Source of the DNA: Candidatus Iainarchaeum sp.
Lineage (GTDB): Archaea; Iainarchaeota; Iainarchaeia; Iainarchaeales; 0-14-0-20-34-12
NCBI GenBank assembly: GCA_030649345.1
Contig: JAUSKK010000038.1
Coordinates: forward strand, 30,001 to 62,000
Direction of reading: 5' to 3'
DNA length: 32,000 nucleotides
The translations under genes were made by a program, and so were the position numbers. The first letter of the stretch is position 1; each line of letters opens with the position of its first letter. Below the pieces are notes generated by a model. That model was not told the DNA's origin. It ran no database searches and was given only the letters and a program-made list of their open reading frames with translations. Positions 2,515 to 30,964 of this stretch are shown one piece after another.

Positions 2515-3105
2515 TTATTTGTTTGCTGAAATTTTCCATACTTGTAATTCCTCAAACCAAATTTTTTCTTTGGCAATAATTTGAAACGAAAAATTCAGTT
2601 GAGCTAATTTTTTTTCAGTTTCTTTAACTCCATTTAAATTGGATTGCAAAAAATAGCACGATCCTTTTGGGTTTAAATAATTCGGTACTTGTTTTAAGAA
2701 TTTGTCTAAAATTTGTCTTCCTTTTTTTCCGCCGTCAATTTCCGGGATGGCTAAAGAATGACTTTCTACGTAAGGCGGGTTGAATACAATAGTGTCAAAT
2801 TTTTCTGTGATTGAAATTTTTTCAAATAAATTCGAATGAATCAATTTTAGGTTTTTTTTAAACCCTAAAGCATAAGCACATAATTCTGTATTTTTTAATG
2901 CAACTTCATTTACGTCTGCAGCTGTAGCTTGAGCTCCTTGCAGTAAAACATTGATGGTTTGAATGCCTGAACCACAGCCCATGTCTAAGGTTGTTTCTCC
3001 TTTTTGAATTTTTACTGTCTTGGCTAGCAAATATGAGTCTTCTCTGGGTTCGTATAAGGAATCCAGTAAAGGTAATTGTTTGTCTTTGAAAAAATAGTAT
3101 TTCAT
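2515..3105 (-). CDS. HemK-related / Mtq2-like SAM-dependent (glutamine-N5) methyltransferase
   Basis: 196 aa. N-terminal 'LYEPREDSYLL', SAM-binding 'LDMGCGSGIQ' and catalytic 'FNPPYV' (NPPY) motif, typical of the short archaeal HemK-like methylases. Confidence 0.85.
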   Translation of the reverse strand: MKYYFFKDKQLPLLDSLYEPREDSYLLAKTVKIQKGETTLDMGCGSGIQTINVLLQGAQATAADVNEVALKNTELCAYALGFKKNLKLIHSNLFEKISITEKFDTIVFNPPYVESHSLAIPEIDGGKKGRQILDKFLKQVPNYLNPKGSCYFLQSNLNGVKETEKKLAQLNFSFQIIAKEKIWFEELQVWKISANK

Positions 3106-3208
3106 ATATTCACTGTTTAATTAATTGTTAATAAAAAACAAATTTAAATATGTGTTTTTTCAAAGCTATTTAATTTAGTTTTTGAAACTGCCAATCATGT
3201 TGTAGAAA

Positions 3209-4141
3209 TTAAATTCGAAATGCAGAACGAACCAACTCAGGCAGGATATTGCGCATTCTATTCATTAATTCTTCAGTTTCAGGTACTGTCTTTCCAATGA
3301 TTCCAGCTGTTTGTATTGCGGTTCTTTTTTTAAGCACACATCGCAGTATTAGAGTGCCAGTAGATCCTAACTTTTTTGGAATTAATGCGTTTACTTGTTT
3401 AAAGGTTTTTTCTGTTAATGGTACAGGCCGTCGTTTTTTAGCCCAATATTTTTTGGCACGCGAAAGCAATCGTGCATATTCGCCGGTCTTTAATACTTCC
3501 GAGTAATCAAAACCCAGTGAAGTTAATGCTGTTTTATAATTAGGGTATCTTAATTTCAATCGAGCCCATAATTGCGGGTGAAATTTTTGTATGCGCTGGC
3601 CATAAATTGTTCCTTCTTGTTCGCGGATATGCTGAAGTAAAGTTCGATCTCGTTCATCCCTGTTTTTTTTGGCTTGTGTGCGGATTTCAGAATACGCGCG
3701 TTCCAATTCTAAATTACGTGCCAGTCGTTTTAAGGGTGCGCGTGCATCCACTCTGTTTTTTTTATATTTTTCGGGAAAAATTGCATGTGCAATAATGCTC
3801 CAGCCATCTTCTTTGGTTATATTTTCTTGTATTAATTTTTCCAATGACTCTGCAGAGACGGCTAACTTGTGTGTTCGAATAAATCGGTTAAGAAAATATT
3901 GCCGTTTTTGATCTGCAGTTAAATGAGTTCGGAATATTTTACGCAGTGTTTCCGGCCGCAGTCCTTTAGAAATTCGAGTGCTGATTTCATGTTCTGTTAA
4001 TCCTTGAGCACGCAATTCACAAGCTTCTGCAGCTGCTTGTTGAATGCGCTTCAGTCGTGCCTGCAGATTGGCTTGAAATCCAGCAGGAATTGTTCCTTTT
4101 TTACTGACAATCCAGGTTGCACGGTTTCCGAATTTTCGCAT
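3209..4141 (-). CDS. orphan Arg-rich protein with HTH-like segments
   Basis: 310-aa ORF with an ATG start. It is rich in Arg. HTH-like stretches include 'GLTEHEISTRISKGLRPETLRKIF' and 'RTAIQTAGIIGKTVPETEELMNRM'. No family recognised. Confidence 0.6.
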   Translation of the reverse strand: MRKFGNRATWIVSKKGTIPAGFQANLQARLKRIQQAAAEACELRAQGLTEHEISTRISKGLRPETLRKIFRTHLTADQKRQYFLNRFIRTHKLAVSAESLEKLIQENITKEDGWSIIAHAIFPEKYKKNRVDARAPLKRLARNLELERAYSEIRTQAKKNRDERDRTLLQHIREQEGTIYGQRIQKFHPQLWARLKLRYPNYKTALTSLGFDYSEVLKTGEYARLLSRAKKYWAKKRRPVPLTEKTFKQVNALIPKKLGSTGTLILRCVLKKRTAIQTAGIIGKTVPETEELMNRMRNILPELVRSAFRI

Positions 4142-4167
4142 AGGTATGCTAATTTTACGAACGAATG

Positions 4168-4177
4168 TATATAAATT
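4168..4177 (+). promoter_or_regulatory. TATA-like box upstream of glyA (possibly shared with divergent ORF 3209-4141)
   Basis: 'tatataaatt' is centred about 26 nt upstream of the ATG at 4198 and lies in the 56-nt divergent intergenic region. Confidence 0.45.
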
Positions 4178-4197
4178 ATTTGGAGTTCAATTTTTGC

Positions 4198-5460
4198 ATG
4201 TCTTCTAAATTATATGAAACTCATTTGAATGCCATTCAATCTTTTGATCCTGTATTGTCTGATTTGTTGGTGAAAGAAAAACAACGTCAAATGAATGGCT
4301 TGGAATTAATTCCTTCCGAAAATTTAGTTTCACAGGCAGTATTGGAAGCCATGGGTTCTGTTGCAACCAACAAATATGCAGAAGGTTATCCTGGTAAACG
4401 TTATTATGGTGGCAATGAATTTATTGATCAAATTGAACAATTAGCTATTGATCGAGCCAAGCAATTGTTTGGTGCAGAGCATGTAAATGTACAGCCCAAT
4501 TCAGGTAGTCCAGCCAATATGGCGGTATATTTTGCTTTAATGCAGCCTGGCGATACTTTTATGGGAATGCGTTTAGACATGGGCGGCCATTTAACGCATG
4601 GACATCCAGTTAATTTTTCTGGAAAATTATACAAATGCATTCAATATCCTGTAGATCCAAAAACAGAATTATTGGATTATGACTTAATTCGAAAAATGGC
4701 TTTAGAACATAAACCTAAAATTTTACTTTCTGGTTTTACTGCTTATCCCCGTGTCATTGATTTTAAAATTTTTCGTGAAATTGCAGACGAAGTTGGTGCA
4801 ATTTGTATGGCGGATATTGCACATATTGCTGGCTTGTGTGCTGTAAATGTTCATGAAAATCCTGTGCCTTATTTTGATGTAGTTACCACCACAACGCATA
4901 AAACATTAAGAGGCCCGAGAAGTGCCATTATTATGTGCAAAGAAAAATTTGGGGCAGCAATTGACAAGGCAATTTTTCCAGGATTGCAAGGCGGACCACA
5001 TGAACACATTATTGCAGGAAAAGCAGTTGCTTTCAAAGAAGCATTGCAGCCTGAATTCAAAAATTATGCTCAGCAAATTGTAAAAAATGCCAAAACTTTA
5101 GCCGATGAATTAACCAGTTTAGGTTTGCGTTTAGTTACTGGCGGAACAGACAATCATTTATTGTTGGTTGATTTAACTTCGAAAGGAATTTCTGGAAAAG
5201 AAGCAGAACATGCTTTGGATTCGATTGGAATTTATGTTAATAAAAATGCAATTCCTTATGATTCCAGAAAACCATTTGATCCTTCCGGTATTCGTTTAGG
5301 CACTCCAGTTTTAACCACTCGAGGCATGAAAGAATCAGAAATGAAAGAAGTTGCACGCTTGATTGTAAAAGCATTGGATTTGCATAAAGATTCTGAAAAA
5401 TTAAAAACTGTTCAATCTGAAGTTTTAGAATTATGCCAGCAATTTCCATTCTATAAATAA
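4198..5460 (+). CDS. glyA: serine hydroxymethyltransferase
   Basis: Full-length colinear SHMT with '[11 protein letters not shown]', '[10 protein letters not shown]' and the PLP-lysine motif '[12 protein letters not shown]'. I prefer the ATG at 4198 ('[10 protein letters not shown]') over the ATG at 4165 that opens the track ORF. The extra 11 residues '[11 protein letters not shown]' have no counterpart in SHMTs, and the A/T box spacing fits 4198. Confidence 0.95.
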
Positions 5461-5470
5461 TTAATTTTTT

Positions 5471-6328
5471 TTATTCTATTACGCTGGCCACAATTTTTTT
5501 GAATACTTCCCAAGGTCTTTTGTCTGGGCCTAAATAGGTTGCTCGTTTTAATTCAGTTTCTGCTTGCAGGACTGCACTTAATGCATGGGCATGCATTTCA
5601 CGGTATCTATACAATGTTCGTGCATTGTGTTCTGTTTCCGGTAAACTGGCATTAATTAATGCTCGGGTTGTTTTGTAAATTTCTGCATGAATAATTCCAG
5701 CGCCTTGCATGATTCGCATTCGATCTAGTCTATCTGGGCCTAAATTTACGACTGAAACAAACATGGCTTTGTCGGCAACAGCTTTGGCTTTCTGCAATAA
5801 TTTTTCAGTAATTTCATTGGCATGTTGTCGATCTAAAAAATGATTTTGAATGGTTCCTCTGGCTGCGTCATTGAATAAAACTCCTAAATGAATTACATGT
5901 GAACCTGTAAATGTTTCCCGTGTTTTTTCAGTTTGTTCTCGTAAAATTCGTTTAATCTCTTTCCATTCTCCGGCTTTTGCAAAATGAAAAATAGCATCTC
6001 TGGGTTGTCCTGTGTGTTCAGCTTTTTTGGCTTCTGTGATGGCAGTTCGAATTTGGTCTTTTTTTTCTTTTTGCTTTCTTTGTTCGGTTTCATTTAATTT
6101 TTCTTTTCCTAGCAATCCAACTTCACTGGTTTCTACGCGTGTGAACTGTTTTCGTAGTTCTGGAGGTGTTCGTTCCCAGGATCCAATGGCTCCTAAAATT
6201 GTTTCTCGAATTTCTCTGCGTTCTCCTGGCTTAGGTGTAGGAGTTCGAAATAATCCAGTGGTTTTTCGAACTCGTTCAAATGTTTTTGCCAACAAACGAG
6301 TTTTTGCAGGTCTGGGTGTTTTGGGCAT
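5471..6328 (-). CDS. orphan protein with basic Pro/Arg-rich N-terminal tail
   Basis: 285-aa ORF opening 'MPKTPRPAKTRLLAKTFERVRKTTGLFRTPTPKPGERRE'. It starts 3 nt after the stop of ORF 6332-7024, so the two are probably an operon. It shares a motif with ORF 8702-9439 (see findings). Confidence 0.6.
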   Translation of the reverse strand: MPKTPRPAKTRLLAKTFERVRKTTGLFRTPTPKPGERREIRETILGAIGSWERTPPELRKQFTRVETSEVGLLGKEKLNETEQRKQKEKKDQIRTAITEAKKAEHTGQPRDAIFHFAKAGEWKEIKRILREQTEKTRETFTGSHVIHLGVLFNDAARGTIQNHFLDRQHANEITEKLLQKAKAVADKAMFVSVVNLGPDRLDRMRIMQGAGIIHAEIYKTTRALINASLPETEHNARTLYRYREMHAHALSAVLQAETELKRATYLGPDKRPWEVFKKIVASVIE

Positions 6329-6331
6329 TTT

Positions 6332-7024
6332 TTATTCTCCGTGAAATCTTTGCAATGCTTCATCTACAGCATCGGCTAAATTGTCTGCGCGCAAAATTAT
6401 TGAAATTGCTCTTCCTTCTTCCATTCCTGCAATTTTAATTAGTTCTCGATTTATGGTTAAGGCTGTTTGTTCATAGGATTTTATTTCCGGAAATGCTCTG
6501 GCTAAAGTTGCATACATAATAGCAGTTCCATAAATTTCATTGGTTGTTGCTTGCCGTGCTCTGACTTTTCTGTACAAAGTTCCTGCAATGGTTCCAGCTG
6601 TGTCTTGGAGTCTTCGAATTTTTTCTAGTTTAGTTGCAGCAGCTGCTTCGTTTTCTGGAAACCATTCTTTTAATCCGATTGCAGCTACTGCAGTAAAGCA
6701 GCCACGCATAATATTCAAGCCTTCTGGTTTAGCGTGCGGAAAAATAGTTTGAAGATGATGGTCTTTGAGTCTTTCTTCAATTAAATCTGGTTCTCCTAAA
6801 CTGCCCATTAATCGCATGGCTTTTCCTACTTTTCTTTGTCGAATGTGAATTTCAGCACTGTCAATAATATTGCCTAAAGTTCTTGTTCCAATTCCTATTC
6901 CAGCTGCCCGCATAGTAGTTGTTCCAGTTCCTGGCTTGTAAGCAGGTTCAATTGGTTTTCCAGCTGGTTTTCTTTTGGGTAAAAATCTTTCCAGAAATCC
7001 TGGTCTTCTAGGCGGTTTAAGCAT
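6332..7024 (-). CDS. orphan protein with basic Pro/Arg-rich N-terminal tail
   Basis: 230-aa ORF opening 'MLKPPRRPGFLERFLPKRKPAGKPIEPAYKPGTGTTTMR'. The body is helical and Ala-rich. An A/T box lies about 26 nt upstream. Confidence 0.6.
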   Translation of the reverse strand: MLKPPRRPGFLERFLPKRKPAGKPIEPAYKPGTGTTTMRAAGIGIGTRTLGNIIDSAEIHIRQRKVGKAMRLMGSLGEPDLIEERLKDHHLQTIFPHAKPEGLNIMRGCFTAVAAIGLKEWFPENEAAAATKLEKIRRLQDTAGTIAGTLYRKVRARQATTNEIYGTAIMYATLARAFPEIKSYEQTALTINRELIKIAGMEEGRAISIILRADNLADAVDEALQRFHGE

Positions 7025-7842: not shown

Positions 7843-8691
7843 ATGACTGCACATATTTTGGATGGAAAAAAACTTGCTTTAGAAATTGAACAACAAATTG
7901 CTTGTGAAGTTAATGAATCGAATTTTTCAATTAAACCTAAACTAGCCGTTATTTTGGTTGGAGAAAATTCAGCCAGCCAATTGTATGTTGAAAAAAAACA
8001 ATTGGCTTGTGTTCGTGTTGGTTTTGAAACCCAAAAGTTTGAATTGCCTTCAAGTATTTCAGAGCAAGAAGTTCTTGTTTTAATTCAAAAATTAAACCAA
8101 GATTCAAGTATTCATGGAATTTTGGTTCAATTGCCTTTGCCGGCTCAATTAAGCACAGAGCATGTCATGAATGCAATTTTGCCGATTAAAGATGTGGATG
8201 GTTTTAGTTCACACAATATTGGTCTGTTGGCGCATGGAAACGAATTTTTATTATCCGCAACAGCTCGTTCTGTTTTGCGTTTATTGGAAACCATTCCTTT
8301 GGATTTTAAAGGAAAACATTTTGTTATCGTAGGCCATACTTTGGTTGTTGCACGTCCTTTGGGTTTTGCTTTGGTGGCTAGAGATGCTACTGTAACGATT
8401 ACCAATAAGTTTACTCAAAATCTTTCAGACTTAACTCAAAAAGCAGATGTAATTGTTTCGGCTGTAGGAAAACCAAGTTTGATTACAAACGAAATGGTTA
8501 AAGAAAATGTAATTGCTGTAGATGTAGGCATTTCGAGAGTGAATAATAAAGTAGTGGGCGATTTAGATTTTGAAAATTTGAAAGAAAAAGCTTCGTATAT
8601 TACTCCAGTTCCAGGCGGTGTTGGGCCAGTGACTGTTTCGTGTTTATTGGAAAATACCTGGAATTCATTTAAAGTTCAAATGCAATTATAA
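7843..8691 (+). CDS. folD: bifunctional 5,10-methylene-THF dehydrogenase / 5,10-methenyl-THF cyclohydrolase
   Basis: 282 aa with 'ILDGKKLA', 'LAVILVGENSASQLYV', 'GILVQLPLP', 'KDVDGF' and 'ITPVPGGVGPVTV'. Classic FolD layout. Confidence 0.95.
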   Translation: MTAHILDGKKLALEIEQQIACEVNESNFSIKPKLAVILVGENSASQLYVEKKQLACVRVGFETQKFELPSSISEQEVLVLIQKLNQDSSIHGILVQLPLPAQLSTEHVMNAILPIKDVDGFSSHNIGLLAHGNEFLLSATARSVLRLLETIPLDFKGKHFVIVGHTLVVARPLGFALVARDATVTITNKFTQNLSDLTQKADVIVSAVGKPSLITNEMVKENVIAVDVGISRVNNKVVGDLDFENLKEKASYITPVPGGVGPVTVSCLLENTWNSFKVQMQL

Positions 8692-8701
8692 AAATAATTT
8701 T

Positions 8702-9439
8702 TTATTTAACTCTTGTATGTCTTCTGCTAATGGGGATCACAGGCGCATAGGCTCTAGGTTTGAGTTCTTGCCGGTTTGCTCGTCCTATTAATTCTTGGGA
8801 GGATACACCCAGCAATGTTGCAATTTCAATGGCTTCAATTCCTTTGTTTGCTTGATTTAATTCAATTGCGATTTCTTTGGCTCGTGCAAAATATTTGCTT
8901 TCGGATCTCCCTTTTCCCAATTCAGCATAGGTTACGGCCAGTTCTTTTTTCAAAATTGTTTTGTATTCAGTTTCAGGCATTGCATCAATGGCTTTTCTTA
9001 AACGTTTAGTCATTAATCCGAATTCGTTTATTAATTCCCGGTAAGCTGTGTGTTGTTCAAGAGAATGAACTTCAGCAATTCGTTCCAATCCTTTAATGGC
9101 TTTCATTTGAATTCGAGCAAAACTCAATATTGTTTTAGCTGAAGCAGTTTTGTCTATTTTTTGAATTTCTTGTTTTTTTAAAAAATTTTCAAAAACGCGT
9201 TTTATTTTGTCTAAGGACCCTGCTTCACCGAAATGTTCTGCGGCTTTTTCAAAATTTTTGCCAGCCAATTGCCGTTCTCCTAATTGAATCAATTCAAGTG
9301 AACGTTGTTTGTGTTTGCGTACTTTTTTTGCCTTGGCCAAACGTTCTTTTGCATTAGTCCATTTAGTTTGAACTTGTTTCCATTTTTCTTTAGTCCAAAC
9401 TTTTACGATTCGTGAAGTAGGAATTCGATAGGATTTCAT
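8702..9439 (-). CDS. orphan Lys/Arg-rich helical protein with C-terminal HTH-like segment and basic C-terminal tail
   Basis: 245-aa ORF. It has the HTH-like stretch 'GIEAIEIATLLGVSSQELIGRAN' and ends 'PRAYAPVIPISRRHTRVK'. It shares the motif 'HFGEAGSLDKIKRVF' with ORF 5471-6328. Confidence 0.6.
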   Translation of the reverse strand: MKSYRIPTSRIVKVWTKEKWKQVQTKWTNAKERLAKAKKVRKHKQRSLELIQLGERQLAGKNFEKAAEHFGEAGSLDKIKRVFENFLKKQEIQKIDKTASAKTILSFARIQMKAIKGLERIAEVHSLEQHTAYRELINEFGLMTKRLRKAIDAMPETEYKTILKKELAVTYAELGKGRSESKYFARAKEIAIELNQANKGIEAIEIATLLGVSSQELIGRANRQELKPRAYAPVIPISRRHTRVK

Positions 9440-9458
9440 ATAGTAAACCTTGTTTTTG

Positions 9459-9470
9459 TATTTAAAAATA
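9459..9470. promoter_or_regulatory. single central A/T box in a 51-nt divergent intergenic region (ORF 8702-9439 and purN)
   Basis: 'tatttaaaaata' is centred about 25.5 nt from the start at 9439 and about 26.5 nt from the purN ATG at 9491. Confidence 0.45.
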
Positions 9471-9490
9471 CTTTCTTTTTTAGTTAGTTT

Positions 9491-10123
9491 ATGAAATTGC
9501 CTGTTTTACGTTTAGCTGTTTTGGGAAGCACAAAAGGCACAGATTTAGACGCAGTTATTCAAGCAATTAAATCTAACCAATTAAATGCAAGTATTGAATT
9601 TGTTTTATCCGATAAATCGGATGCGTTTATTTTAACTCGAGCTAAAAATCATGGATTGAAAACTATTTTTTTGGATTTTAAAAATAAAACCAGAGAACAA
9701 TTTTGTCAAGAATTAATGGACTTATTGGATTCAAGCAAAATTGATTTGATTGTATTGATTGGGTTTATGCGAATTTTAACTTCAGATTATGTTGAAAAAT
9801 TTGGTTTGAAAACTATGAATATTCATCCTTCGCTGCTGCCTGCATTTGCCGGTGGAATGGACAAAAATGTGCATCAAGCAGTCTTGGATTCAGGAATAAA
9901 AGAAACTGGCTGTACTTTGCATTTTGTTTCCGAGCAAGCAGATCAAGGTCCGATTATTTTGCAAAAAAAAGTTTCAGTGAGTGCAGGAGAAACTGTTGAT
10001 AGTTTAAAAGAAAAAGTTCAGCAAGCAGAACAAGTAATTATTGTGCAAGGAATTCGATTGTTTTCTGAAAGAAAGATAAAGCTTGTGAATACTAAAGTAG
10101 TTATCGAGGAATACTTGTGTTGA
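9491..10123 (+). CDS. purN: phosphoribosylglycinamide formyltransferase (GAR transformylase)
   Basis: 210 aa with 'LAVLGSTKGTDL', 'IDLIVLIGFMRIL', 'NIHPSLLPAFAG' and 'TGCTLHFVSEQADQGPIILQ'. Canonical PurN motifs. Confidence 0.92.
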   Translation: MKLPVLRLAVLGSTKGTDLDAVIQAIKSNQLNASIEFVLSDKSDAFILTRAKNHGLKTIFLDFKNKTREQFCQELMDLLDSSKIDLIVLIGFMRILTSDYVEKFGLKTMNIHPSLLPAFAGGMDKNVHQAVLDSGIKETGCTLHFVSEQADQGPIILQKKVSVSAGETVDSLKEKVQQAEQVIIVQGIRLFSERKIKLVNTKVVIEEYLC

Positions 10124-10674
10124 AACGAAAATTGTTTAAAGTTAGACCAATCGCAGTTCAGTCTGCGCGGCATAATACTCGCAGGCTTGGTTTAAATCCA
10201 AAATTGCGAGGCAACAGCCGGGGTACTTTAAGTTTTGATGAAGCTATTTTACGAGATATTTCATTGCGCCGCTTGGCTACTGCTGGTCAGCATTCTCTTT
10301 CTGGTTTAGTGAATCAATTTGGTTTAACTGCCGGCGGAGTATTATCTCGAATAGAATTAAGCCAGCGAACTGAACTATTGCGTGCTACTGCTAGACTTGA
10401 AAAAATAAGTGTTCCTAAATTAGCCAAATTATTTCGATTATCGCCTAAACATGTACGAGAACTTCTGAATCCAAGTACTGCTAAAAAAAATAGTAAAAAG
10501 AAATCTGCTAACCTTAATGGGCGTCATAATTTTAAAGGCCGGATTGTCCGAGCATTTTTGAATGATTTGCATTCAGGAAATTTTTCAGATGCTGAGTTGA
10601 TGACAAAATACGAAAATGCAGGCTTGACTTCCAATAAATTTGAAGAACTAACTGGGAGGCGTGTTAATTTATGA
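10117..10674 (+). CDS. orphan basic-tail HTH-like protein embedded between purN and purH
   Basis: 185-aa ORF. It has no ATG near the start, so it begins at GTG 10117 (or TTG 10120), preceded by 'gagga' at 10106-10110. It overlaps the purN stop by 7 nt and the purH ATG by 4 nt (ATGA). N-terminus is 'MLKRKLFKVRPIAVQSARHNTRRLG'. HTH-like segments are 'SLSGLVNQFGLTAGGVLSRI' and 'VPKLAKLFRLSPKHVRELL'. Confidence 0.65.
   Translation: MLKRKLFKVRPIAVQSARHNTRRLGLNPKLRGNSRGTLSFDEAILRDISLRRLATAGQHSLSGLVNQFGLTAGGVLSRIELSQRTELLRATARLEKISVPKLAKLFRLSPKHVRELLNPSTAKKNSKKKSANLNGRHNFKGRIVRAFLNDLHSGNFSDAELMTKYENAGLTSNKFEELTGRRVNL
10654..10659 (+). promoter_or_regulatory. Shine-Dalgarno-like site for purH
   Basis: 'gggagg' lies 11 nt upstream of the purH ATG (10671), inside the preceding ORF. 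Confidence 0.5.
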
Positions 10675-12161
10675 CTCAAAAATTAGCCTTAATTTCAGTT
10701 ACTGATAAAACCGGTTTGCCTGAATTATGCCAAGCTTTGCAAAAACAAAATTTTTCTTTTATCGGAACTACAGGCACTCAAAAATTTTTAGAAGAGAATA
10801 AACTTGTATGTAACGCTTTAGATTCATTAACTGGTTTTCCTGAATTATTGGATGGCCGGGTTAAAACTTTGAATGAAAAAATTCATGCAGGAATTTTAGC
10901 CAATCGTTCAAATCCAAAACATTTAGAGCAGTTAAAAAAAATGAATATTTTGCCCATTGATTGTGTGATTGTAAATTTATACGACTTCAAAAACAATCCA
11001 GATATTGAGCATATTGATATTGGCGGAATTACTTTAATGCGGGCTGCGGCTAAAAATTTTGAACACGTGCTTGTATTGGTAGACCCTCAAGATTATTCTA
11101 AAGTTATTCAAGAATTAACTGAAAAAAAAGAAGTTTCATTTGAAATTCGAAAAAATCTTGCTTGGAAAGCATTTGCTTTAGCAACAGAATACGATTCTTT
11201 GATTGCAGGCCATTTTTCAAATCAATTATTTCCTGAAAAACTTTCAATTACTTTGTCTAAAAAAATGGATTTACGTTACGGAGAAAATGCACATCAAAAA
11301 GCTGCCTTTTATTCTTGGAATGAACAAGTGTTTCCAGCAATTGAAGTCTTGGGCGGAAAACCATTATCTTTCAATAATATTTCGGATATGAGTGCTGCTA
11401 TTTTGTTAGCGTGTGAATTTTCTGAGCCAACAGCTGTTATTGTCAAGCATGAAAATCCATGCGGTGTGTCTTCTCATATAAATTTAGCTCAGGCCTTTCA
11501 GCAAGCATTGGATTGTGATTCTTTAAGTGCTTTTGGCGGAGTAATTGCATTAAATCAAAAATGTGATTTTGAAACAGCTCAAAAAATTGCTGGTTTTTTT
11601 AATGAAGTAGTGATTGCTCCAGAATTTGAAGAAAAAGCAATTCAAGAATTGAAAAAAAATCCAAACAGACGAATTGTTTGCTTGAAATCTAAACCAGTTT
11701 ATCCTGTAAGAAGTTTTAAACCAGTGTTTAATGGCTTGTTGGTTCAAGAACCAGATTCAGTACAAGAACTTGAACAAGATTTTTCAGTAGCCAGTGAAAT
11801 TCAACCCAGTAAAGCGCAACTGATTGATTTAATGTTTGCTTGGAAGATTGCCAAACATTGCAAAAGCAATGCGATTGTGATTGCTAAAAACAAAACTGCT
11901 TTTGGAATTGGCTGCGGCCAGCAATCACGGGTTCATTCAACTCAAATTGCTATTCAAAAAGCAGGCAATCATGTTCAAGATTCTGTTTTGGCTGGAGATG
12001 CATTTTTTCCTTTTCCGGATTCAGTTGAACTTGCAATAACTGCTGGCGTACAAGCAATCATTGCTCCGAAAGGCAGTGTGAATGATTCCAAAGTTATAAA
12101 TACTTGCAATGAACATAAGATTTCTTTAGTGTTTGCTCAGAATAGGCATTTTAAACACTAA
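10671..12161 (+). CDS. purH: bifunctional AICAR transformylase / IMP cyclohydrolase
   Basis: 496 aa. N-terminal MGS-like domain 'ALISVTDKTGL...GTTGTQKFL...GRVKTLNEKIHAGIL', then the AICARFT domain 'LRYGENAHQ', 'SFNNISD', 'VKHENPCG'. Confidence 0.93.
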   Translation: MTQKLALISVTDKTGLPELCQALQKQNFSFIGTTGTQKFLEENKLVCNALDSLTGFPELLDGRVKTLNEKIHAGILANRSNPKHLEQLKKMNILPIDCVIVNLYDFKNNPDIEHIDIGGITLMRAAAKNFEHVLVLVDPQDYSKVIQELTEKKEVSFEIRKNLAWKAFALATEYDSLIAGHFSNQLFPEKLSITLSKKMDLRYGENAHQKAAFYSWNEQVFPAIEVLGGKPLSFNNISDMSAAILLACEFSEPTAVIVKHENPCGVSSHINLAQAFQQALDCDSLSAFGGVIALNQKCDFETAQKIAGFFNEVVIAPEFEEKAIQELKKNPNRRIVCLKSKPVYPVRSFKPVFNGLLVQEPDSVQELEQDFSVASEIQPSKAQLIDLMFAWKIAKHCKSNAIVIAKNKTAFGIGCGQQSRVHSTQIAIQKAGNHVQDSVLAGDAFFPFPDSVELAITAGVQAIIAPKGSVNDSKVINTCNEHKISLVFAQNRHFKH

Positions 12162-12173
12162 GAGTTTATATGT

Positions 12174-13043
12174 ATGCAGCGAAGACAGGTTCCTTTTAGA
12201 ACACGAAGATTTATTGTGCGTGCGCTTCGAGCAGCTAAAAATACGCCCATGTGGAAAATTGCAGATCACGCTCAAGTCTCTGAATCTTTGGTTGGAAAAA
12301 TTCGGGCACAAACTCATGCAAGGCCTACACGAGTTCGATTATTGCGAAATCGGAGAACTGTTTTAGAACAAAAAATTAGAGCTGTTATTGCAAAAAATGG
12401 TCCTCAGACAGCTCATGGTTTAGTTAAACAATTTCGTTCAGCCAATCCTGCAATTTCGTATAAGGTTGTGAACGATATTTTGTTAAAATTGGAACAAGAA
12501 CAAGTGCAAGTTCCTCCAAGGCAAAGAAAACGTGAATTGAGTAAACGGAATAAAAATCCCAATACTTGGGCTAGACGAAAAGCATTAATTATTGGTTTGC
12601 GTCAAGGAAAAACTTTTCAAGAACTAGCGCGTGACTTGAGGGTGAACATAAAATATTTGTACCGTGATTTGTATGATATGCATGCACATGGATTATCCAT
12701 TCCTTCAACTGTTCCTTTGACTGCAAGAAGACAACGTATGATTGAAATTGATGCTTTGCTGGATTTGAATCCCAATATTTCTGCAAAATCTCTTGCTGAC
12801 TTATATGGTGTCAAAAAAAGAACTGCTCAATCGTATTTGAATGAAGCTTTACGTTTTCAAAAAGAGCTCAAAAAATTACGAAAACCTGCTAAAAGTAATT
12901 ATACTCGGGCTGAAATCGAACAACAAAACATTGATCTCTTGAATTTATTTAAGGAAAAGTTTACTATTGAAGAAGCTGCTTTTTTGGTTGGCATTCCGGT
13001 TTCAACTGCGCGTTCTCGCTCTCGAGTGATTCGAAAAAAATAA
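12174..13043 (+). CDS. orphan Arg-rich protein built from about five HTH-like modules
   Basis: 289-aa ORF starting 12 nt after the purH stop. N-terminus is 'MQRRQVPFRTRRFIVRALR'. Repeated modules include 'TPMWKIADHAQVSESLVGKIR', 'KTFQELARDLRVNIKYLYRDL', 'SAKSLADLYGVKKRTAQSYLNEAL' and 'FTIEEAAFLVGIPVSTARSRS'. Confidence 0.65.
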   Translation: MQRRQVPFRTRRFIVRALRAAKNTPMWKIADHAQVSESLVGKIRAQTHARPTRVRLLRNRRTVLEQKIRAVIAKNGPQTAHGLVKQFRSANPAISYKVVNDILLKLEQEQVQVPPRQRKRELSKRNKNPNTWARRKALIIGLRQGKTFQELARDLRVNIKYLYRDLYDMHAHGLSIPSTVPLTARRQRMIEIDALLDLNPNISAKSLADLYGVKKRTAQSYLNEALRFQKELKKLRKPAKSNYTRAEIEQQNIDLLNLFKEKFTIEEAAFLVGIPVSTARSRSRVIRKK

Positions 13044-13056
13044 TTAACAGCTTAAT

Positions 13057-13620
13057 TTATTCAATCATTCTTTTTTCAGTGATAATTTTTTGAACTTTTT
13101 GGTCGTGTTTTTCTTTCGGAAGTTTTTGCACAATTTGAAAATCAAAACACAAGCCAATGGTTTTCGTTTTTTTGTTCAATTTTTTTAGAGTGCGGTCATA
13201 GAAGCCTTTTCCAAAGCCTAATCTTTGTTTGAATACATCAAATCCAAGCCCTGGAATAATTAATAGATCTATTTTGTTCAAACGAACTTTCCGTATAAAT
13301 TCTTTTTTGGGTTCCATTAATTGAAATTGTTTTTCTTCCAGTTCTTTAAAATTTTTAATTGTACTGAACTGAAGTGTTTTTGTTTTAAAGTTAGTAATAG
13401 GAATGCATACTGTTTTTCCAAGCTTTAGTGTTTTTTCAATCCCTTTTTTGGTTTCAACTTCGTTGGTTCGTCCCACAAAAAATGCAATGATTTTGGCTTG
13501 TTGAAATTCATGTGTTTTGAAAAGTTTTTCCATAATTTTTGTGCTTTTTTTGAGTTTTTGTTTTTCGTGCTCAATTTTTTGTTTCATTTTTTTCCGAATT
13601 GTTGGTTTGGATTCTTTCAC
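13057..13620 (-). CDS. 5-formyltetrahydrofolate cyclo-ligase (MTHFS family)
   Basis: 187 aa with 'IRKKMKQKIEHEKQKL...STKIMEKLF', 'IIAFFVGRTNEVET', 'IDLLIIPGLGFDVFKQRLGFGKGFYDR' and 'LPKEKHDQKV'. It starts with GTG at 13620. An ATG alternative at 13587 would remove the conserved N-terminal helix. Confidence 0.85.
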   Translation of the reverse strand: MKESKPTIRKKMKQKIEHEKQKLKKSTKIMEKLFKTHEFQQAKIIAFFVGRTNEVETKKGIEKTLKLGKTVCIPITNFKTKTLQFSTIKNFKELEEKQFQLMEPKKEFIRKVRLNKIDLLIIPGLGFDVFKQRLGFGKGFYDRTLKKLNKKTKTIGLCFDFQIVQKLPKEKHDQKVQKIITEKRMIE

Positions 13621-13673: not shown

Positions 13674-14018
13674 ATGCATCCTGTGAAACCCAAGCCTGCT
13701 CGCAGAGTTAGATTGCCTCGAAAAGTTTTAAGGCCTAAACCAGTTGCATTAACTCCTGAATTGCGTTCAAGTGTTTTGGCTGGACTTGAACAAGCAGTTG
13801 ATTTGCATGGATTGCTTCAAAGAACTCGTTTGCCTTCGAATGTTGTTCGCGTTGTGATTGCTGAACAGATTTCTAGTTTAACTGCTGAAAAACAAAAATT
13901 AAATGACGCTTTGGGTAAAGTTTCTTTAGGTTCTGTTGAATTGCATGGAATTATTCGAAAAATGGGTGACTTGAATTCTAGATTAATGCATTTAGAGCGA
14001 TTGCTGGATTCACAGTAA
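13674..14018 (+). CDS. small orphan protein with basic Pro/Arg tail and HTH-like core
   Basis: 114-aa ORF opening 'MHPVKPKPARRVRLPRKVLRPKPVALTPE', followed by 'DLHGLLQRTRLPSNVVRVVIAEQI' and a coiled-coil-like C-terminus. Confidence 0.6.
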   Translation: MHPVKPKPARRVRLPRKVLRPKPVALTPELRSSVLAGLEQAVDLHGLLQRTRLPSNVVRVVIAEQISSLTAEKQKLNDALGKVSLGSVELHGIIRKMGDLNSRLMHLERLLDSQ

Positions 14019-14040: not shown

Positions 14041-14061
14041 TTGAATTCTCTTAATCAGTAC

Positions 14062-16650
14062 ATGAAGTTTTTTCGATTGCTGGGCTTTTTCTTAATTCTA
14101 TTTACTATTTTTGCAGTGAATGGATTTGCTGCAAATTGTTCAGCTATGCCTGCATCCATTGATGGTGTTCCTACTCCGCCTGCAGTTACTTTTTCGGATA
14201 ACTATCATTTAACTCGTGCTGGTCCAGGAATTATTTTCAAACTTACAGACCATTGTACTGGTGCAGATCCAGCCAACGATGGTTTTTTGCAAGTTTTAGG
14301 CCAAGATAATGTCACTTTAGATTGTGATGGACATACTTTAAAAATTACAGGAACTTCTGGAACCGCTGTTCAAATTTCTGATTCTGCCAATAAACCTTCT
14401 CAAAATATTACCGTGATTGGATGCACTATTTTTGCCCCCAGCAATGCAATTTCCATTAAAGGTTCCAATAAAATTTTTGTGGAAGGAAATGATAAATTAG
14501 TTGGCGGTATTGTTGGTGTAAAAATCTTGGATTCCTCAGAAGTTAGTGTAAGTGAAAATACACAGATTAATAGTACTGAAGCTGAATATTATTTTGAATA
14601 TCCTACGTTTCCAGATCCGCATATTATTCCAAAGACTGGAATTCAATCTACGGGTACCAGTGATTTGAATGTTAAACAAAATACTATTATTTTTGCCGGA
14701 GAATATGGAATTGATGTGGTAAGCGGAGACCGGATTAATATTCGTTCCAATTCAAGAATTGAAGGGCAATATGCAAACAATGCTTCCAATCGAACTTTGT
14801 TTGGAATACACGTAAATGATTCTGCAAGCTCAGAGATTTTTAATAATCGTGTTTTAAAATTCAAGAATGCTGGAATGTATTTGCAAAATCTTTCAGATAG
14901 TTTAATTGCAAAAAATAGAATTTCAGACATTGGTGTTTCTGGACAACCCAACGGTCATGGTATTGAAATTAGTTATTCTGGTTTTTTGGATTTGAATGAA
15001 AATACTATTGAACTTTCTTTGCTGGATGGAATTCGCTTGATTGAATCGGATGGTGTGCTTATTCAAAATAATTTAATTAAATTAAATAATGGTTCTGGAA
15101 TTCGAAGTTTGGGTTTATCGGATGGAATTACTGTTTTACGAAATCAACTATTGGACAATCAAGACGGAGCAGTTTTGAGTACAACCAAAAACAATGCTAT
15201 TTTTACTTTTTCTGAAAATACAGTTTCAAATAATATTTCAGGTTTGTCTGTAAATGCTTTAGCGCCTTTAACTCCAACCAGTTCAGTGGATGCAGTTATT
15301 CAAAATAATGTATTTACTTCCACTAGTGGAATTATGCAAATTGCAACCAATTTAGTAAATGCCGGAAATATTACAGTCCAAGGAAATACGTATAAGAATT
15401 CAACTACTGTTGCATTGCAGGCTTGGGGTGTAAATAATTTGCAAGTCATTTCAGACAATATTTTTGAAGATAATGCTATTGGAATTGTTGCTAAGCCTAG
15501 TTCAGCTCCAGGCGGGCGAAATTGCGGAATAGTTGAAATTGGTTCTCCTGTGGATATACCTATGCAAGATATTGGAACCATTGCTAATACGTTTAGAGGA
15601 AATACTCAAATTGGAATTTCACTTACTCGCTGTTCCAATGTTGACCTGTTTCATTCATTGATTGATTTGTCTGCTGTGGGAATTTATGCAAACGGAAATT
15701 CTGCAATTGAAATTGCAGGCAATCAAATTCAAAATGGAATGTTTGGAATTATATTATCTGGTCAAGGAAAAGGAAATTATAATGGAGCAAATTTGAATGC
15801 ACCGTTTTCAATTTATACTAATAAAATTTTGCAAAACCAAGTCGGGTTAGTTTTATTGAATAGTTTGCCTTTAGCTCAAGCCAATGGCTTTGAAGATGCT
15901 GTGTTCAATAATGAATTTCAAAGCACTGTAAAGGATTTAAATTTTTTAACCGATGCTCCGGTGAATATTCTATGGAAAATGAGTCCAGGAATTCAATGCG
16001 GTATGGGTCCCAATTTAGTGGGCGGGCGTTGTGTGGGTGGAAATTATTGGAAAAATTATTCTGGAACAGACTCCGATAGTCCTGCAGATGGAATTGGAGA
16101 CCAAGGAATAGGTGTCAAAGATCCGTATACTGCTTCTACTATTACTGCTGGCGGAATTACTCAAACTGCTATGGATGAATATCCTTTGACTTCAATTGCA
16201 AGACCTGAGCCAGTGTTTGAATGCAGGCTTGATTTAGATTGTGTAAATGTTCCTGACGCATGTACTTTAGGAAGGTGTAATATTCAACCAGGTGATGCTG
16301 GCGGTTCATGTGTTTACGATCAACCAATAGTTTGTCCTGCTGGAACTGGTGTATGCAATCCAGTCAATGGGCAATGTGAATTAGCTCAAATTCAAGTGCA
16401 AGCTTGCACCAATGATTTAGAGTGCTTGAATGCAGATGGATTAACATGTACTTTAGAAACATGTGATCTAGGCGCAGGTCAATGTGTTTCTGCTGTAAAA
16501 GTTTGTGATCAAGGCTTGGTTTGTGCTGAACCTTCCGGTGAATGTAAACCTCTTGCAGCTGGTCCGCCGATTGGAGTGAATGAAAGCAATCCAATTATTG
16601 TTTTATTAATTTTAGGAATTGTTTTAGTTTTAGTATTTAAGAAAAAGTAA
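14062..16650 (+). CDS. large secreted NosD-like right-handed beta-helix surface protein with Cys-rich stalk and C-terminal TM anchor
   Basis: The signal peptide 'MKFFRLLGFFLILFTIFAVNGFA' supports ATG 14062 over the TTG at 14041. There are many repeats of about 22 aa of the type 'GI.v..S.....v..N.I', for example 'GIDVVSGDRINIRSNSRIEG' and 'GIRLIESDGVLIQNNLIK'. A NosD-type 'GGNYWKNYSGTDSDSPADGIGDQ' is present. Two Cys-rich modules follow, and the protein ends 'NPIIVLLILGIVLVLVFKKK'. Confidence 0.8.
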   Translation: MKFFRLLGFFLILFTIFAVNGFAANCSAMPASIDGVPTPPAVTFSDNYHLTRAGPGIIFKLTDHCTGADPANDGFLQVLGQDNVTLDCDGHTLKITGTSGTAVQISDSANKPSQNITVIGCTIFAPSNAISIKGSNKIFVEGNDKLVGGIVGVKILDSSEVSVSENTQINSTEAEYYFEYPTFPDPHIIPKTGIQSTGTSDLNVKQNTIIFAGEYGIDVVSGDRINIRSNSRIEGQYANNASNRTLFGIHVNDSASSEIFNNRVLKFKNAGMYLQNLSDSLIAKNRISDIGVSGQPNGHGIEISYSGFLDLNENTIELSLLDGIRLIESDGVLIQNNLIKLNNGSGIRSLGLSDGITVLRNQLLDNQDGAVLSTTKNNAIFTFSENTVSNNISGLSVNALAPLTPTSSVDAVIQNNVFTSTSGIMQIATNLVNAGNITVQGNTYKNSTTVALQAWGVNNLQVISDNIFEDNAIGIVAKPSSAPGGRNCGIVEIGSPVDIPMQDIGTIANTFRGNTQIGISLTRCSNVDLFHSLIDLSAVGIYANGNSAIEIAGNQIQNGMFGIILSGQGKGNYNGANLNAPFSIYTNKILQNQVGLVLLNSLPLAQANGFEDAVFNNEFQSTVKDLNFLTDAPVNILWKMSPGIQCGMGPNLVGGRCVGGNYWKNYSGTDSDSPADGIGDQGIGVKDPYTASTITAGGITQTAMDEYPLTSIARPEPVFECRLDLDCVNVPDACTLGRCNIQPGDAGGSCVYDQPIVCPAGTGVCNPVNGQCELAQIQVQACTNDLECLNADGLTCTLETCDLGAGQCVSAVKVCDQGLVCAEPSGECKPLAAGPPIGVNESNPIIVLLILGIVLVLVFKKK
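16219..16551 (+). repeat. tandem duplicated Cys-rich module (protein-level repeat) within the surface protein
   Basis: 'ECRLDLDCVNVPDACTLGRCNIQPGDAGGSCVYDQPIVCPAGTGVCNPVNGQCE' and 'ACTNDLECLNADGLTCTLETCDLGAGQCVSAVKVCDQGLVCAEPSGECK' have the same Cys spacing and both contain the core 'DL(D/E)C(V/L)N...CTL..C'. Confidence 0.7.
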
Positions 16651-18709: not shown

Positions 18710-19156
18710 ATGGTGAGTCGTTTTTCAAAATTTTCAAGAAAACCTAGGTCGCATGCATTTACTAAAAACTTTGCTCCAACTTTGGTTGCAATGGATGCTG
18801 TAGTTTCTGCTCGAATTCGTGCCAATATTTTCAAATTTGCCGGCAATCCAAGAGTAAGCAAAAGTCAATTGTATGCGCGATTTCCCAGTTATTCAACACA
18901 CTTTTTGGATAGGGTTACAAAAAGTATTGATTGGCGGGCGAGAACGAAAAGCATTTTTGGACTTAAGAAAAAGCCTGCATATAAAAAAAGAAAACCGAAA
19001 AAGAAAAAAGTAAATTCATCTTTTCATAGAAATCAGGCAGGTTTATTTATGGCAGACTTTCAATCTAGAAAATTTACAGATACGCAATTAATGAAAACGT
19101 ATGGAATTTCTTTTGCAAAATTTCAAGAATTAACCGGTCGCTTACCTAGAAATTAG
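18710..19156 (+). CDS. orphan basic-tail protein, paralogue of ORF 10117-10674 in its C-terminal domain
   Basis: 148 aa. N-terminus 'MVSRFSKFSRKPRSHAF', Lys-rich linker 'KKKPAYKKRKPKKKK', and C-terminus 'FMADFQSRKFTDTQLMKTYGISFAKFQELTGR', which aligns with 'FLNDLHSGNFSDAELMTKYENAGLTSNKFEELTGR' of ORF 10117-10674. Confidence 0.65.
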   Translation: MVSRFSKFSRKPRSHAFTKNFAPTLVAMDAVVSARIRANIFKFAGNPRVSKSQLYARFPSYSTHFLDRVTKSIDWRARTKSIFGLKKKPAYKKRKPKKKKVNSSFHRNQAGLFMADFQSRKFTDTQLMKTYGISFAKFQELTGRLPRN

Positions 19157-20234: not shown

Positions 20235-20915
20235 TTATTTTTCAAATCTAGTTAATAATTCTTTTTCTCCAATTAAGCTAAAAACAAATACATTGTCTTT
20301 TTCAGGTTCAAATTGATGTCGTCCGCGTACTGGTTTTGGTTTTAAGCTGACCATGATGTGGTCTGCAATGTGTTTGTTGACTTCTACTGCAAAAGCATCA
20401 ATGCCGATTGAATGATTAATGGACGAAATTAATTCTGTTTTTTCTAAGTTTGTTCGCAATTCGCGTACTGCCTGTATTAATTGGGCATGAAATGCTCTTT
20501 GATCTTTTATTTTGTTTTTGGCTAAAAATTGTTCAATCAATGCTTTTCTTTTTTTAGGTAAATTGATTCCGCTTAAATGGATTTCAAGTTCTTGTAAAGT
20601 AGGATTTTTGGAAAAAACATAAATTCTTTGTCTCGGAGTTTCTTGGGTAATTCGCAAAGAACGTAGTTCGTATCTTTTGGGTTTAATGACTCCTTCTTGA
20701 ATTAATTGACTGTGCGCATTTGTTAAAGGCTGCCTTCTTTGAATGTTTTGAGTTTGTTCATGTTCTGAGATAGTTTGAACAATTCTGCGTGTTCTTCTAG
20801 CTTTAACAATTTGTTTGTTGGAAACAACAAGACCTGCAGTTCCTTCAATATTGGTTGCATATTTTGGAAACATTTTTGCGCGCGTTCTAGGCCTTCTTGA
20901 AAAAACAGGTTTCAT
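20235..20915 (-). CDS. orphan basic-tail protein directly upstream of tyrS
   Basis: 226-aa ORF opening 'MKPVFSRRPRTRAKMF'. Its stop is 9 nt before the tyrS start, so co-transcription is likely. It has the HTH-like segment 'PTLQELEIHLSGINLPKKRKALIEQFL'. Confidence 0.6.
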   Translation of the reverse strand: MKPVFSRRPRTRAKMFPKYATNIEGTAGLVVSNKQIVKARRTRRIVQTISEHEQTQNIQRRQPLTNAHSQLIQEGVIKPKRYELRSLRITQETPRQRIYVFSKNPTLQELEIHLSGINLPKKRKALIEQFLAKNKIKDQRAFHAQLIQAVRELRTNLEKTELISSINHSIGIDAFAVEVNKHIADHIMVSLKPKPVRGRHQFEPEKDNVFVFSLIGEKELLTRFEK

Positions 20916-30515: not shown

Positions 30516-30933
30516 AGTTTTGTTAGATACCAATATTTTGATATATGCTTACGAACAAGATAACCTGGTAAAATGTTCAATTGCCCGCAAGTGTATTGAA
30601 GAAATATCCAGCACAAATGAAATGATTTTATCTATTCAAAATTTGGCTGAGTTTTCCCGGGTTGCTAAAGAAAAACTTAAAAGTCCTCTTTCTTCTTCTG
30701 AAATAAAGTCTCATTTAAAGATCTTTGAAAAAAGTTTTACAATTATTTATTATTCGTCCAGTTCTATTGAAGTTGCGCTTGAACTCGTGGACAAGTACGG
30801 AATCCATTTTTTTGATGCTTTATTAACTGCAACGATGAAAGAAAATGGAATTAACACAATCTTAACTGAAAATGAAAAAGATTTTAACAAAATTCCTTGG
30901 CTGAACGTAGTTAATCCGTTTAAGCGTGCATAG
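30499..30933 (+). CDS. vapC: PIN-domain ribonuclease toxin (VapC)
   Basis: 'MKFTTKVLLDTNILIYAY' is followed by the conserved acidic positions 'LAEF', 'FFDALL' and 'TENEKDF'. I chose the start at ATG 30499, with 30481 as an alternative. It overlaps vapB by 17 nt. Confidence 0.85.
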   Translation: MKFTTKVLLDTNILIYAYEQDNLVKCSIARKCIEEISSTNEMILSIQNLAEFSRVAKEKLKSPLSSSEIKSHLKIFEKSFTIIYYSSSSIEVALELVDKYGIHFFDALLTATMKENGINTILTENEKDFNKIPWLNVVNPFKRA

Positions 30934-30964
30934 TCTTTTTATAGTTCAAATTCATTCTTTTATT

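Follow-up and report, generated by a model that had tools for sequence, protein, structure and literature searches.

A basic orphan protein with predicted helix-turn-helix-like units is encoded between purN and purH in a DPANN archaeon

In a 32,000-nucleotide (nt) stretch of a genome of Candidatus Iainarchaeum sp. (contig JAUSKK010000038.1 of assembly GCA_030649345.1; hereafter the window, in which all positions are counted), the purine biosynthesis genes purN and purH are separated by an open reading frame (ORF) of 185 codons, at 10117–10674 on the plus strand, that we refer to as ORF185. We consider it probable, though well short of certain, that ORF185 specifies a lineage-specific, fast-evolving, basic accessory protein, composed of three helix-turn-helix (HTH)-like units and binding nucleic acid, whose gene was inserted at a permissive operon junction. 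A first-pass annotation of this DNA had proposed that ORF185 is co-translated with its neighbors and encodes a dedicated regulator or partner of PurN and PurH or, alternatively, is a domesticated insertion; it is the alternative that the evidence presented here favors.

Four ORFs follow one another at this locus in the same direction and without spacers, as read from the sequence: purN, ORF185, purH and ORF289. The first of these, purN (9491–10123, plus strand; 210 amino acids, aa), encodes a phosphoribosylglycinamide formyltransferase (Pfam Formyl_trans_N, 2.3e-45; TIGR00639 PurN, 2.1e-53, above cut-off) whose C-terminus is ~4 aa longer than in relatives, and it ends in a TGA stop codon at 10121–10123; its final codons (…IEEYLC) include both the Shine-Dalgarno (SD) motif and the start codon of ORF185. 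Because the sole Met codon of ORF185 is that of residue 162, the gene must start at a GTG or TTG codon. The GTG at 10117 lies 6 nt downstream of the SD-like motif GAGGA (10106–10110, plus strand), and the TTG at 10120 is an in-frame alternative. The purN stop codon and the start of ORF185 overlap within the 7-nt sequence GTGTTGA, and the TGA stop codon of ORF185 (10672–10674) overlaps the purH start codon in the tetranucleotide ATGA (10671–10674), and 11 nt before the purH ATG, still inside the 3′ end of ORF185, is an SD-like motif for purH, GGGAGG (10654–10659, plus strand). The first-pass annotation had placed the GTG start with its GAGGA, both overlaps and the internal GGGAGG exactly here. 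The purH gene (10671–12161, plus strand) encodes a 496-aa bifunctional 5-aminoimidazole-4-carboxamide ribonucleotide (AICAR) transformylase/inosine monophosphate (IMP) cyclohydrolase (Pfam AICARFT_IMPCHas, 1e-109, together with MGS; PRK00881, 6.8e-184). ORF289 (12174–13043, plus strand; 289 aa), a second Arg-rich basic multi-HTH protein that had likewise been picked out as an orphan, does begin only 12 nt after the purH stop codon. Non-ATG (TTG or GTG) starts are apparent in several other genes of the window, namely 22505–23365 and 14041–16650 (both plus strand) and purA (25293–26564, minus strand), in which the conserved GDEGKGK motif lies ~10 residues past a TTG; the non-ATG start proposed for ORF185 would therefore not be exceptional in this genome.

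That ORF185 is real, as had been assumed at first pass, is supported by shuffling, by a positive codon signal in the annotated frame alone, and by a typical GC content at third codon positions (GC3); on this evidence we take it to be a genuine protein-coding gene and not a chance ORF. Since the window is AT-rich (GC content ~35%), long stop-free stretches are rare, and none of 200 shuffles of the window contained one of at least 185 codons (the maximum was 179); random sequence of ORF185's own composition yielded 0.045 stretches of at least that length per 32 kb. With a codon model trained on the 12 Pfam-assigned genes of the window, the log-likelihood of ORF185 is +0.21 bits per codon in the annotated frame and −0.73 and −1.00 in the other two frames, the value for housekeeping genes being higher (0.44–0.60). 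Its GC3 of 0.24 is that of housekeeping genes. ORF185 exactly fills the 547-bp spacer between purN and purH, in DNA with a coding density of 92%, and the identical sequence is present in an independent Logan assembly of run SRR13727527.

The corresponding loci of relatives indicate how ORF185 came to lie where it does. Contigs were retrieved through their purN homologs, together with 25 Joint Genome Institute (JGI) metagenome loci, and purN, purH, folD and MTHFS were placed on them by tblastn. Across the relatives compared, purN is 50–67% identical to that of the window; the nearest PurN proteins, at 57–67%, all come from DPANN metagenome-assembled genomes (MAGs) or metagenomes, and the backbone folD–purN–purH–MTHFS, with MTHFS on the opposite strand, recurs in the closest relatives (loci L031–L038). 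In 14 related loci (L031, L036–L038, L040, L044, L045, L047–L051, L053 and L054) purN directly abuts or overlaps purH, the overlap being 8 nt in L031, the closest relative, and also 8 nt in L036. Where the junction is occupied, it holds a 301-aa basic protein gene (L032 and L033), a gene for a 258-aa basic protein of a different family (L034 and L035), a gene for an S-adenosylmethionine (SAM) hydroxide adenosyltransferase (SAM_HAT; L039), a NUDIX hydrolase gene (L041 and L042), a gene for a 791-aa ankyrin-repeat protein (L057) or, in the window, ORF185. The inserts of the relatives are unrelated to ORF185 and to one another. In particular, BLASTP, phmmer and hidden Markov models (HMMs) revealed no homology between ORF185 and the basic inserts of L032/L033 or L034/L035 (hhalign probability, 2% and 0.2%, respectively), and no conserved homolog of ORF185 was found between or beside purN and purH in the related loci. 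The first-pass annotation had named purN abutting purH in relatives, with no conserved ORF there, as the arrangement that would refute a dedicated regulator or partner, and it is this arrangement that the comparison uncovered. These gene orders indicate that adjacency of purN and purH is the ancestral state and that the junction has been invaded independently several times.

Database searches identified no protein related to ORF185 in any other genome. A word-indexed search of 5.8 billion clustered proteins returned only ORF185 itself (Q7S92_04890, a hypothetical protein of the 'Candidatus Diapherotrites archaeon' MAG, DPANN), as did a full phmmer scan of 1.84 billion representatives, and the earlier designation of ORF185 as an orphan is borne out by these self-matches. 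There were no matches in NCBIfam or PHROGs, the best PADLOC match was non-significant (E 0.0097, 13 bits), and a sequence search of the PDB gave no match; the best-scoring PDB sequence, ribosomal S4e (E 1.5), was judged a chance hit. Library scans found no transposase, nuclease or integrase domain in ORF185, and a repeat scan around the gene found short repeats at chance level only, with no flanking terminal repeats. Similarity to PurR, of either the Bacillus or the LacI type, was absent in Pfam and NCBIfam, and no ligand-binding domain is predicted in the 185 aa. The only relative of ORF185 that we could detect is encoded in the window itself, by ORF148 (18710–19156, plus strand; 148 aa; isoelectric point (pI) 11.6), an orphan whose own homology search found only itself. 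The C-terminus of ORF148 matches the C-terminal 35–60 residues of ORF185 (BLASTP, 46% identity over 35 aa, pairwise E 7e-8; phmmer, E 5e-7 among the window orphans), the aligned stretches being FSDAELMTKYENAGLTSNKFEELTGR and FTDTQLMKTYGISFAKFQELTGR. (Paralogy between ORF185 and ORF289 was also considered, from a 23-nt match between 10302–10324 and 12416–12438 that is 87% identical and encodes GLVNQF and GLVKQF in HTH-like units, and was rejected as chance-level because the same scan gave many repeats of similar quality.) Because housekeeping proteins of the window are only 44–65% identical to any relative, the orphan status of ORF185 must in part reflect sparse sampling and rapid divergence, and orthologs of such fast-evolving genes would be undetectable.

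The predicted structure of ORF185, a protein with a pI of 11.6 that is 11.4% Arg and 8.6% Lys, suggests what kind of protein it may be. In the AlphaFold2 model, in which the mean predicted local distance difference test score (pLDDT) is 75, there are three units scoring 82–92 and two segments predicted to be disordered. Residues 1–38 (10117–10230, plus strand; pLDDT ~46–54) form a basic tail rich in Arg, Lys and Pro, with nine Lys or Arg and no Asp or Glu among the first 30 residues. Then come two three-helix, HTH-like units, unit 1 at residues 40–77 (…HSLSGLVNQFGLTAGGVLSRIE; 10234–10347, plus strand; helices 40–56, 61–68 and 72–77; pLDDT 82–89) and unit 2 at residues 81–117 (…ISVPKLAKLFRLSPKHVRELL; 10357–10467, plus strand; helices 81–95, 99–105 and 110–117; pLDDT 89–92), a Lys-rich linker at residues 124–136 (KKNSKKKSANLNG; 10486–10524, plus strand; pLDDT <50) that is predicted to be disordered, and a third three-helix unit at residues 142–179 (…FSDAELMTKYENAGLTSNKFEELTGR; 10540–10653, plus strand; helices 142–153, 158–164 and 172–179; pLDDT 88–90), which is the only part of ORF185 with a detectable relative. 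The HTH fold is defined by three bundled helices, the second and third joined by a sharp turn, and by significant superposition on solved HTH domains. Each unit of ORF185 is modeled as a long helix followed by a helix-turn-helix. A fragment comprising residues 38–124 had a pLDDT of 85 when modeled alone. Read by eye, LSGLVNQFGLTAGGVLSRIE and VPKLAKLFRLSPKHVRELLN of ORF185, and DTQLMKTYGISFAKFQELTG of ORF148, fit the classical hydrophobic/Gly pattern of HTH motifs. Foldseek searches were made with the full model against the PDB and BFVD and with the two-unit fragment against the PDB, with significance set at E ≤ 0.001. The weak top matches were nearly all HTH DNA-binding domains (DBDs), among them those of ArdK, the bipartite DBD of Tc3 transposase, the Pax paired domain, sigma region 4 and the DBDs of DeoR, DnaA and KorA; the alignments to these HTH domains span 36–49 columns with a root-mean-square deviation of 2.4–3.8 Å, but E values are at least 0.3. 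The HTH-like character ascribed to the protein at first pass is supported in the predicted structure only, as three three-helix units, and 'HTH-like' is a reasonable structural description of the model that carries no demonstrated membership of an HTH family. General binding of DNA (or RNA), as by a transcription-factor-like or nucleoid-associated protein, is the most likely function of ORF185.

ORF185 has many counterparts of the same composition. Eleven of the 35 genes of the window lack a Pfam assignment, have a pI of 9.8–11.6 and an Arg content of 8–13% (1–4% in the 12 Pfam-assigned reference genes), and show a raised GC content at second codon positions; six are on the minus strand (1697–2440, 3209–4141, 5471–6328, 6332–7024, 8702–9439 and 20235–20915) and five on the plus strand (10117–10674, 12174–13043, 13674–14018, 18710–19156 and 30926–31570). 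The first-pass view that an unknown basic protein is unusual at this position is weakened by these counts. Because GC3 and the choice of Arg codons in the basic orphans match those of the reference genes, they are native genes, not recent imports. Most have a strongly basic, Pro-containing N-terminus (MPxxRxPxR-like, as in MPKTPRPAKTR…, MLKPPRRPGF…, MHPVKPKPARR… and MLKRKLFKVRP…), with 6–12 Lys or Arg and almost no Asp or Glu in the first 30 residues. The local orphan families are not detectably related to one another by phmmer or small HMMs. Genes of the same kind are present in the same cluster of the closest relatives (L031, L032, L034 and L036) in other numbers and at other positions. Between L032 and L036, for example, housekeeping proteins are 85–96% identical, whereas, of the four pairs of basic orphans compared, three are only 33–38% identical and one, of 264 and 260 aa, is 90% identical. 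A 301/322-aa orphan pair changes slot: in L032 it occupies the purN–purH junction, and in L036 the slot between folD and the gene after it. This 301/322-aa orphan has a possible Rossmann/SAM-methyltransferase-like GxG motif and a C-terminal HTH.

ORF289 appears to be more conserved in position than ORF185. It matches Pfam HTH_23 (1.4e-6; 28.4 bits, cut-off 24.6) and, just below threshold, HTH_11 (2.6e-5), and it aligns colinearly over 165 columns (hhalign probability 63%, E 7e-5) with a profile of the 325- and 336-aa proteins encoded in the same purH–MTHFS slot of L032 and L036, of which, judging from this alignment, it is probably a diverged positional ortholog. ORF289 lacks an SD motif and has a TTTTAAA box ~24 nt upstream of its ATG, within the 3′ end of purH (12140–12173), and so may have a leaderless promoter of its own and be uncoupled from purH.

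The expression signals of ORF185 itself are those of an internal gene of an operon. In a survey of upstream regions, the genes that open transcription units in the window lacked an SD motif and had an A/T-rich box ~25 nt before the start, and GGAGG-like motifs were found for the most part at internal cistrons (ORF185, purH and the genes at 23362 and 5471). An A/T box near position −25 without an SD motif is typical of leaderless archaeal mRNAs. ORF185 has an SD motif only, with no TATA-like box of its own. The candidate promoter of a leaderless purN–ORF185–purH transcript is a TATA-like element, GTATTTAAAAATAC (9458–9471), a 6-2-6 palindrome (GTATTT-AA-AAATAC) in a 51-bp divergent intergenic region, the center of which is 26.5 nt upstream of the purN ATG and ~25 nt from the start of a 245-aa ORF on the minus strand; it may be a single symmetric TATA element that serves two leaderless divergent genes. 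In Haloferax volcanii, Huber et al. found strict termination-reinitiation coupling at overlapping gene pairs, and they also showed that reinitiation is the main use of SD motifs in archaea whose first cistrons are leaderless (PMC6728339). In such coupled pairs, translation of the second gene depends on that of the first. The sequence features of coupled pairs, a short stop/start overlap (−4 nt, −1 nt or similar) between co-directional genes and often an intragenic SD motif, are present at both ORF185 junctions. From these signals, and in keeping with the co-translation proposed at first pass, ORF185 is very probably co-expressed with purN and purH. Because such overlaps are common here (five of the 20 same-strand neighbor pairs in the window), coupling says little about the function of ORF185.

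Our interpretation of ORF185 as an inserted, HTH-like accessory gene has to be set against several observations that count against it. The databases hold no close relative of this genome, the best purN being 67% identical, and L032 or L034 may hold a very diverged positional ortholog of ORF185. In a Pfam-A hmmscan no family matched ORF185 even at E ≤ 1, the HTH families HTH_23, HTH_11, HTH_3, Sigma70_r4, MarR and TrmB included. The AlphaFold2 models were built from the single sequence, without an alignment, and none of the Foldseek searches with them gave a significant match (best PDB E, 0.3; best BFVD E, 7e-3). Finally, according to the title of PMC10666635, tightly coupled overlapping pairs 'often encode subunits of heteromeric complexes', so that a physical link to PurN or PurH retains some plausibility.

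Such a link is part of the idea that ORF185 is a dedicated regulator or physical partner, co-translated in fixed stoichiometry with the two enzymes, that acts on the purN promoter as a repressor or activator or else binds both folate-dependent transformylases. The overlaps at both junctions with their internal SD motifs, the predicted HTH-like fold, the statement just quoted on overlapping unidirectional pairs, and a neighborhood that is as a whole one of folate and purine metabolism are all in line with this idea. We nonetheless regard it as very unlikely, given that purN abuts purH in 14 related loci and that the other occupied junctions hold unrelated genes, that ORF185 has no homolog in any other genome represented in the protein sets searched, and that it resembles no known purine regulator in Pfam or NCBIfam. 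Moreover, its only paralog, ORF148, adjoins a tRNA-synthetase gene rather than purine genes, and almost one gene in three across the window is of the same basic-orphan type, whatever its neighbors. Less probable still is that ORF185 does nothing, being a spurious or decaying ORF that happens to occupy the 547-bp spacer. The lack of homologs and of family matches, the need for a non-ATG start, and a codon log-likelihood of 0.21, below that of housekeeping genes, could be read in this way, but the shuffles, the frame-specific codon signal and the typical GC3 argue otherwise, as do the exact filling of the junction with SD motifs at both ends, the confident helical fold obtained from the single sequence, the conservation of the C-terminal unit in ORF148, and the fact that the genome is 92% coding.

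An account that we consider unlikely is that the Arg-rich orphans (ORF185, ORF148, ORF289 and others) are selfish or fast-turnover cassettes that, in this DPANN clade, colonize housekeeping junctions. Such cassettes could derive from the DNA-binding modules of mobile elements, as remnants, or be diversifying proteins of host or virus interaction. In favor of it, the cluster is otherwise conserved but its basic orphans differ in number, position and identity, three of the four orphan pairs compared have diverged far more than housekeeping proteins, one orphan occupies different slots in L032 and L036, basic Pro-containing N-termini are common to the orphans, and the weak structural neighbors of ORF185 include transposase and paired-type bipartite HTH domains. 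Set against this are the absence of transposase, nuclease and integrase domains and of terminal repeats flanking ORF185, the native codon usage and GC3, the lack of any detectable relation among the orphan families, and the absence of a second copy of ORF185 from the databases searched. A bolder proposal, which we rate as quite unlikely, is that ORF185 belongs to an undescribed clade-specific class in Diapherotrites-related DPANN archaea, one of Arg-rich, helical (often multi-HTH) proteins with a pI of 10–12 and a basic Pro/Arg tail that account for ~30% of genes locally, in most pairs compared outpace housekeeping genes in divergence by a wide margin, and enter and leave the junctions between cistrons of housekeeping operons; we found nothing relevant in the literature on a class of Arg-rich basic DPANN orphans. 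Were this true, the class could be a hypervariable repertoire of DNA- or RNA-binding proteins deployed in interaction with a host, virus or symbiont, or a new type of selfish operon-junction cassette.

We favor, then, a model in which ORF185 was inserted into the ancestrally contiguous purN–purH junction of a conserved DPANN folate/purine cluster of the form glyA–folD–purN–purH–MTHFS. Lacking a promoter of its own, the gene would be transcribed together with purN, from the TATA-like box ~26 nt upstream of the purN ATG and probably as a leaderless mRNA, and would be translated by means of its SD motif and its start/stop overlap with purN. The 3′ end of ORF185 would in turn supply the SD motif and ATGA for purH, just as the 3′ end of purN does in relatives that lack the insert; because it carries these signals and can hand on ribosomes, expression of purH would be unbroken by the insertion. 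A single purN–ORF185–purH transcript along which ribosomes are passed from gene to gene is the simplest form of this model. In it, ORF185 is most likely one of the many Arg-rich basic orphans that make up a large class across the genome, rather than a regulator or enzyme partner dedicated to purine synthesis.

Several known systems resemble ORF185 in part. Like proteins with tandem or bipartite HTH modules (the Pax paired domain, the N-terminal DBD of Tc3/IS630-type transposases, Pfam HTH_23/HTH_28-like modules and plasmid ArdK), it is a basic protein with small three-helix HTH-type units joined by linkers, and such modules are its top, albeit non-significant, structural neighbors; the neighboring ORF289 does match HTH_23 above threshold. 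ORF185 differs from them in that it matches none by sequence, gives structural E values of at least 0.3 in the PDB, combines three units with a predicted disordered tail rich in Arg, and lacks a catalytic domain. Small archaeal HTH and winged-HTH factors (Lrp/AsnC, MarR, TrmB and DeoR-type DBDs) are similar to ORF185 in size, in their helical units of DNA-binding type and in being embedded in operons, but ORF185 has no sequence match to them, no predicted wing or ligand-binding domain, and no orthologs found elsewhere. The purine regulators named PurR would fill the role proposed at first pass, that of an HTH protein controlling pur genes. Bacillus PurR consists of PuR_N and a phosphoribosyltransferase fold, and E. 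coli PurR is a LacI-family protein with a LacI HTH and a periplasmic-binding-protein-like domain. Both types are conserved across lineages; ORF185, which shows no similarity to them in Pfam or NCBIfam, is restricted to a single MAG. With accessory genes that insert into operons (phage 'morons', free-standing homing-endonuclease genes and toxin-antitoxin cassettes) ORF185 shares patchy presence, same orientation and tight junctions, and the likeness extends to the purN–purH junction itself, which holds different genes in different relatives; unlike them, ORF185 contains no domain of a nuclease, toxin or mobility protein, is not flanked by repeats, and has neither a promoter nor a terminator of its own. 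At the level of expression, the ORF185/purH pair resembles the archaeal coupled pairs with an ATGA overlap and an intragenic SD motif tested in Haloferax volcanii (PMC6728339). The mechanism would be the same, the differences being that ORF185 is a mid-placed orphan that overlaps genes on both sides and that its upstream overlap is 7 nt with a GTG.

The surroundings of ORF185 in the window form a folate, one-carbon and purine cluster, consisting of glyA (4165–5460), folD (7843–8691), purN, purH, the 5-formyltetrahydrofolate cyclo-ligase gene MTHFS (13057–13620, minus strand) and purA (minus strand). ZTP riboswitches accompany purH and folate genes in bacteria; a search with Rfam found no riboswitch, ZTP or other, and no other RNA element in the window. 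The purH product is a bacterial-type bifunctional enzyme, the best matches to which in a pattern-limited scan of GTDB representative genomes are all bacterial (Burkholderiales, Bacteroidota and Chlorobiota) and at most ~45% identical; these matches are compatible with an old bacterial origin of DPANN purH. In L032, three near-tandem or tandem paralogs lie between folD and purN (2811–3635, 3653–4447 and 5180–5965) that belong to a Pfam-less family of 258–309-aa basic proteins with repeated Y-x-x-[ST]-P-x-G-[KR]-like motifs; further members are found in L036 (4892–5821) and, between purN and purH, in L034 (2928–3704). Also between folD and purN of L032 (4582–5102) are two small overlapping ORFs (83 and 90 aa) that by eye look like a ribbon-helix-helix antitoxin and a RelE/ParE-like toxin, with no Pfam match on record; the pair is another sign of accessory cassettes gathering in this cluster.

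Taken alone, ORF185 matters little. It is another lineage-specific hypothetical protein of a DPANN MAG, probably DNA-binding and expressed through a well-known coupling mechanism, and it constitutes a new protein family, known from one genome and of a familiar general kind, which is ordinary for a DPANN genome. The idea of a regulator or partner specific to the purine operon can be set aside on comparative grounds. What emerges instead is that in this archaeal clade the purN–purH junction is permissive, at least six unrelated genes having occupied it without disrupting the operon. It offers, on a small scale, a natural experiment on the tolerance of operons to insertions when SD and overlap signals are re-created. 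Beyond this, the locus draws attention to the Arg-rich basic orphans of these reduced genomes as a large and fast-evolving population, with possible roles in chromatin, regulation or host interaction, and it is this population that is worth following.

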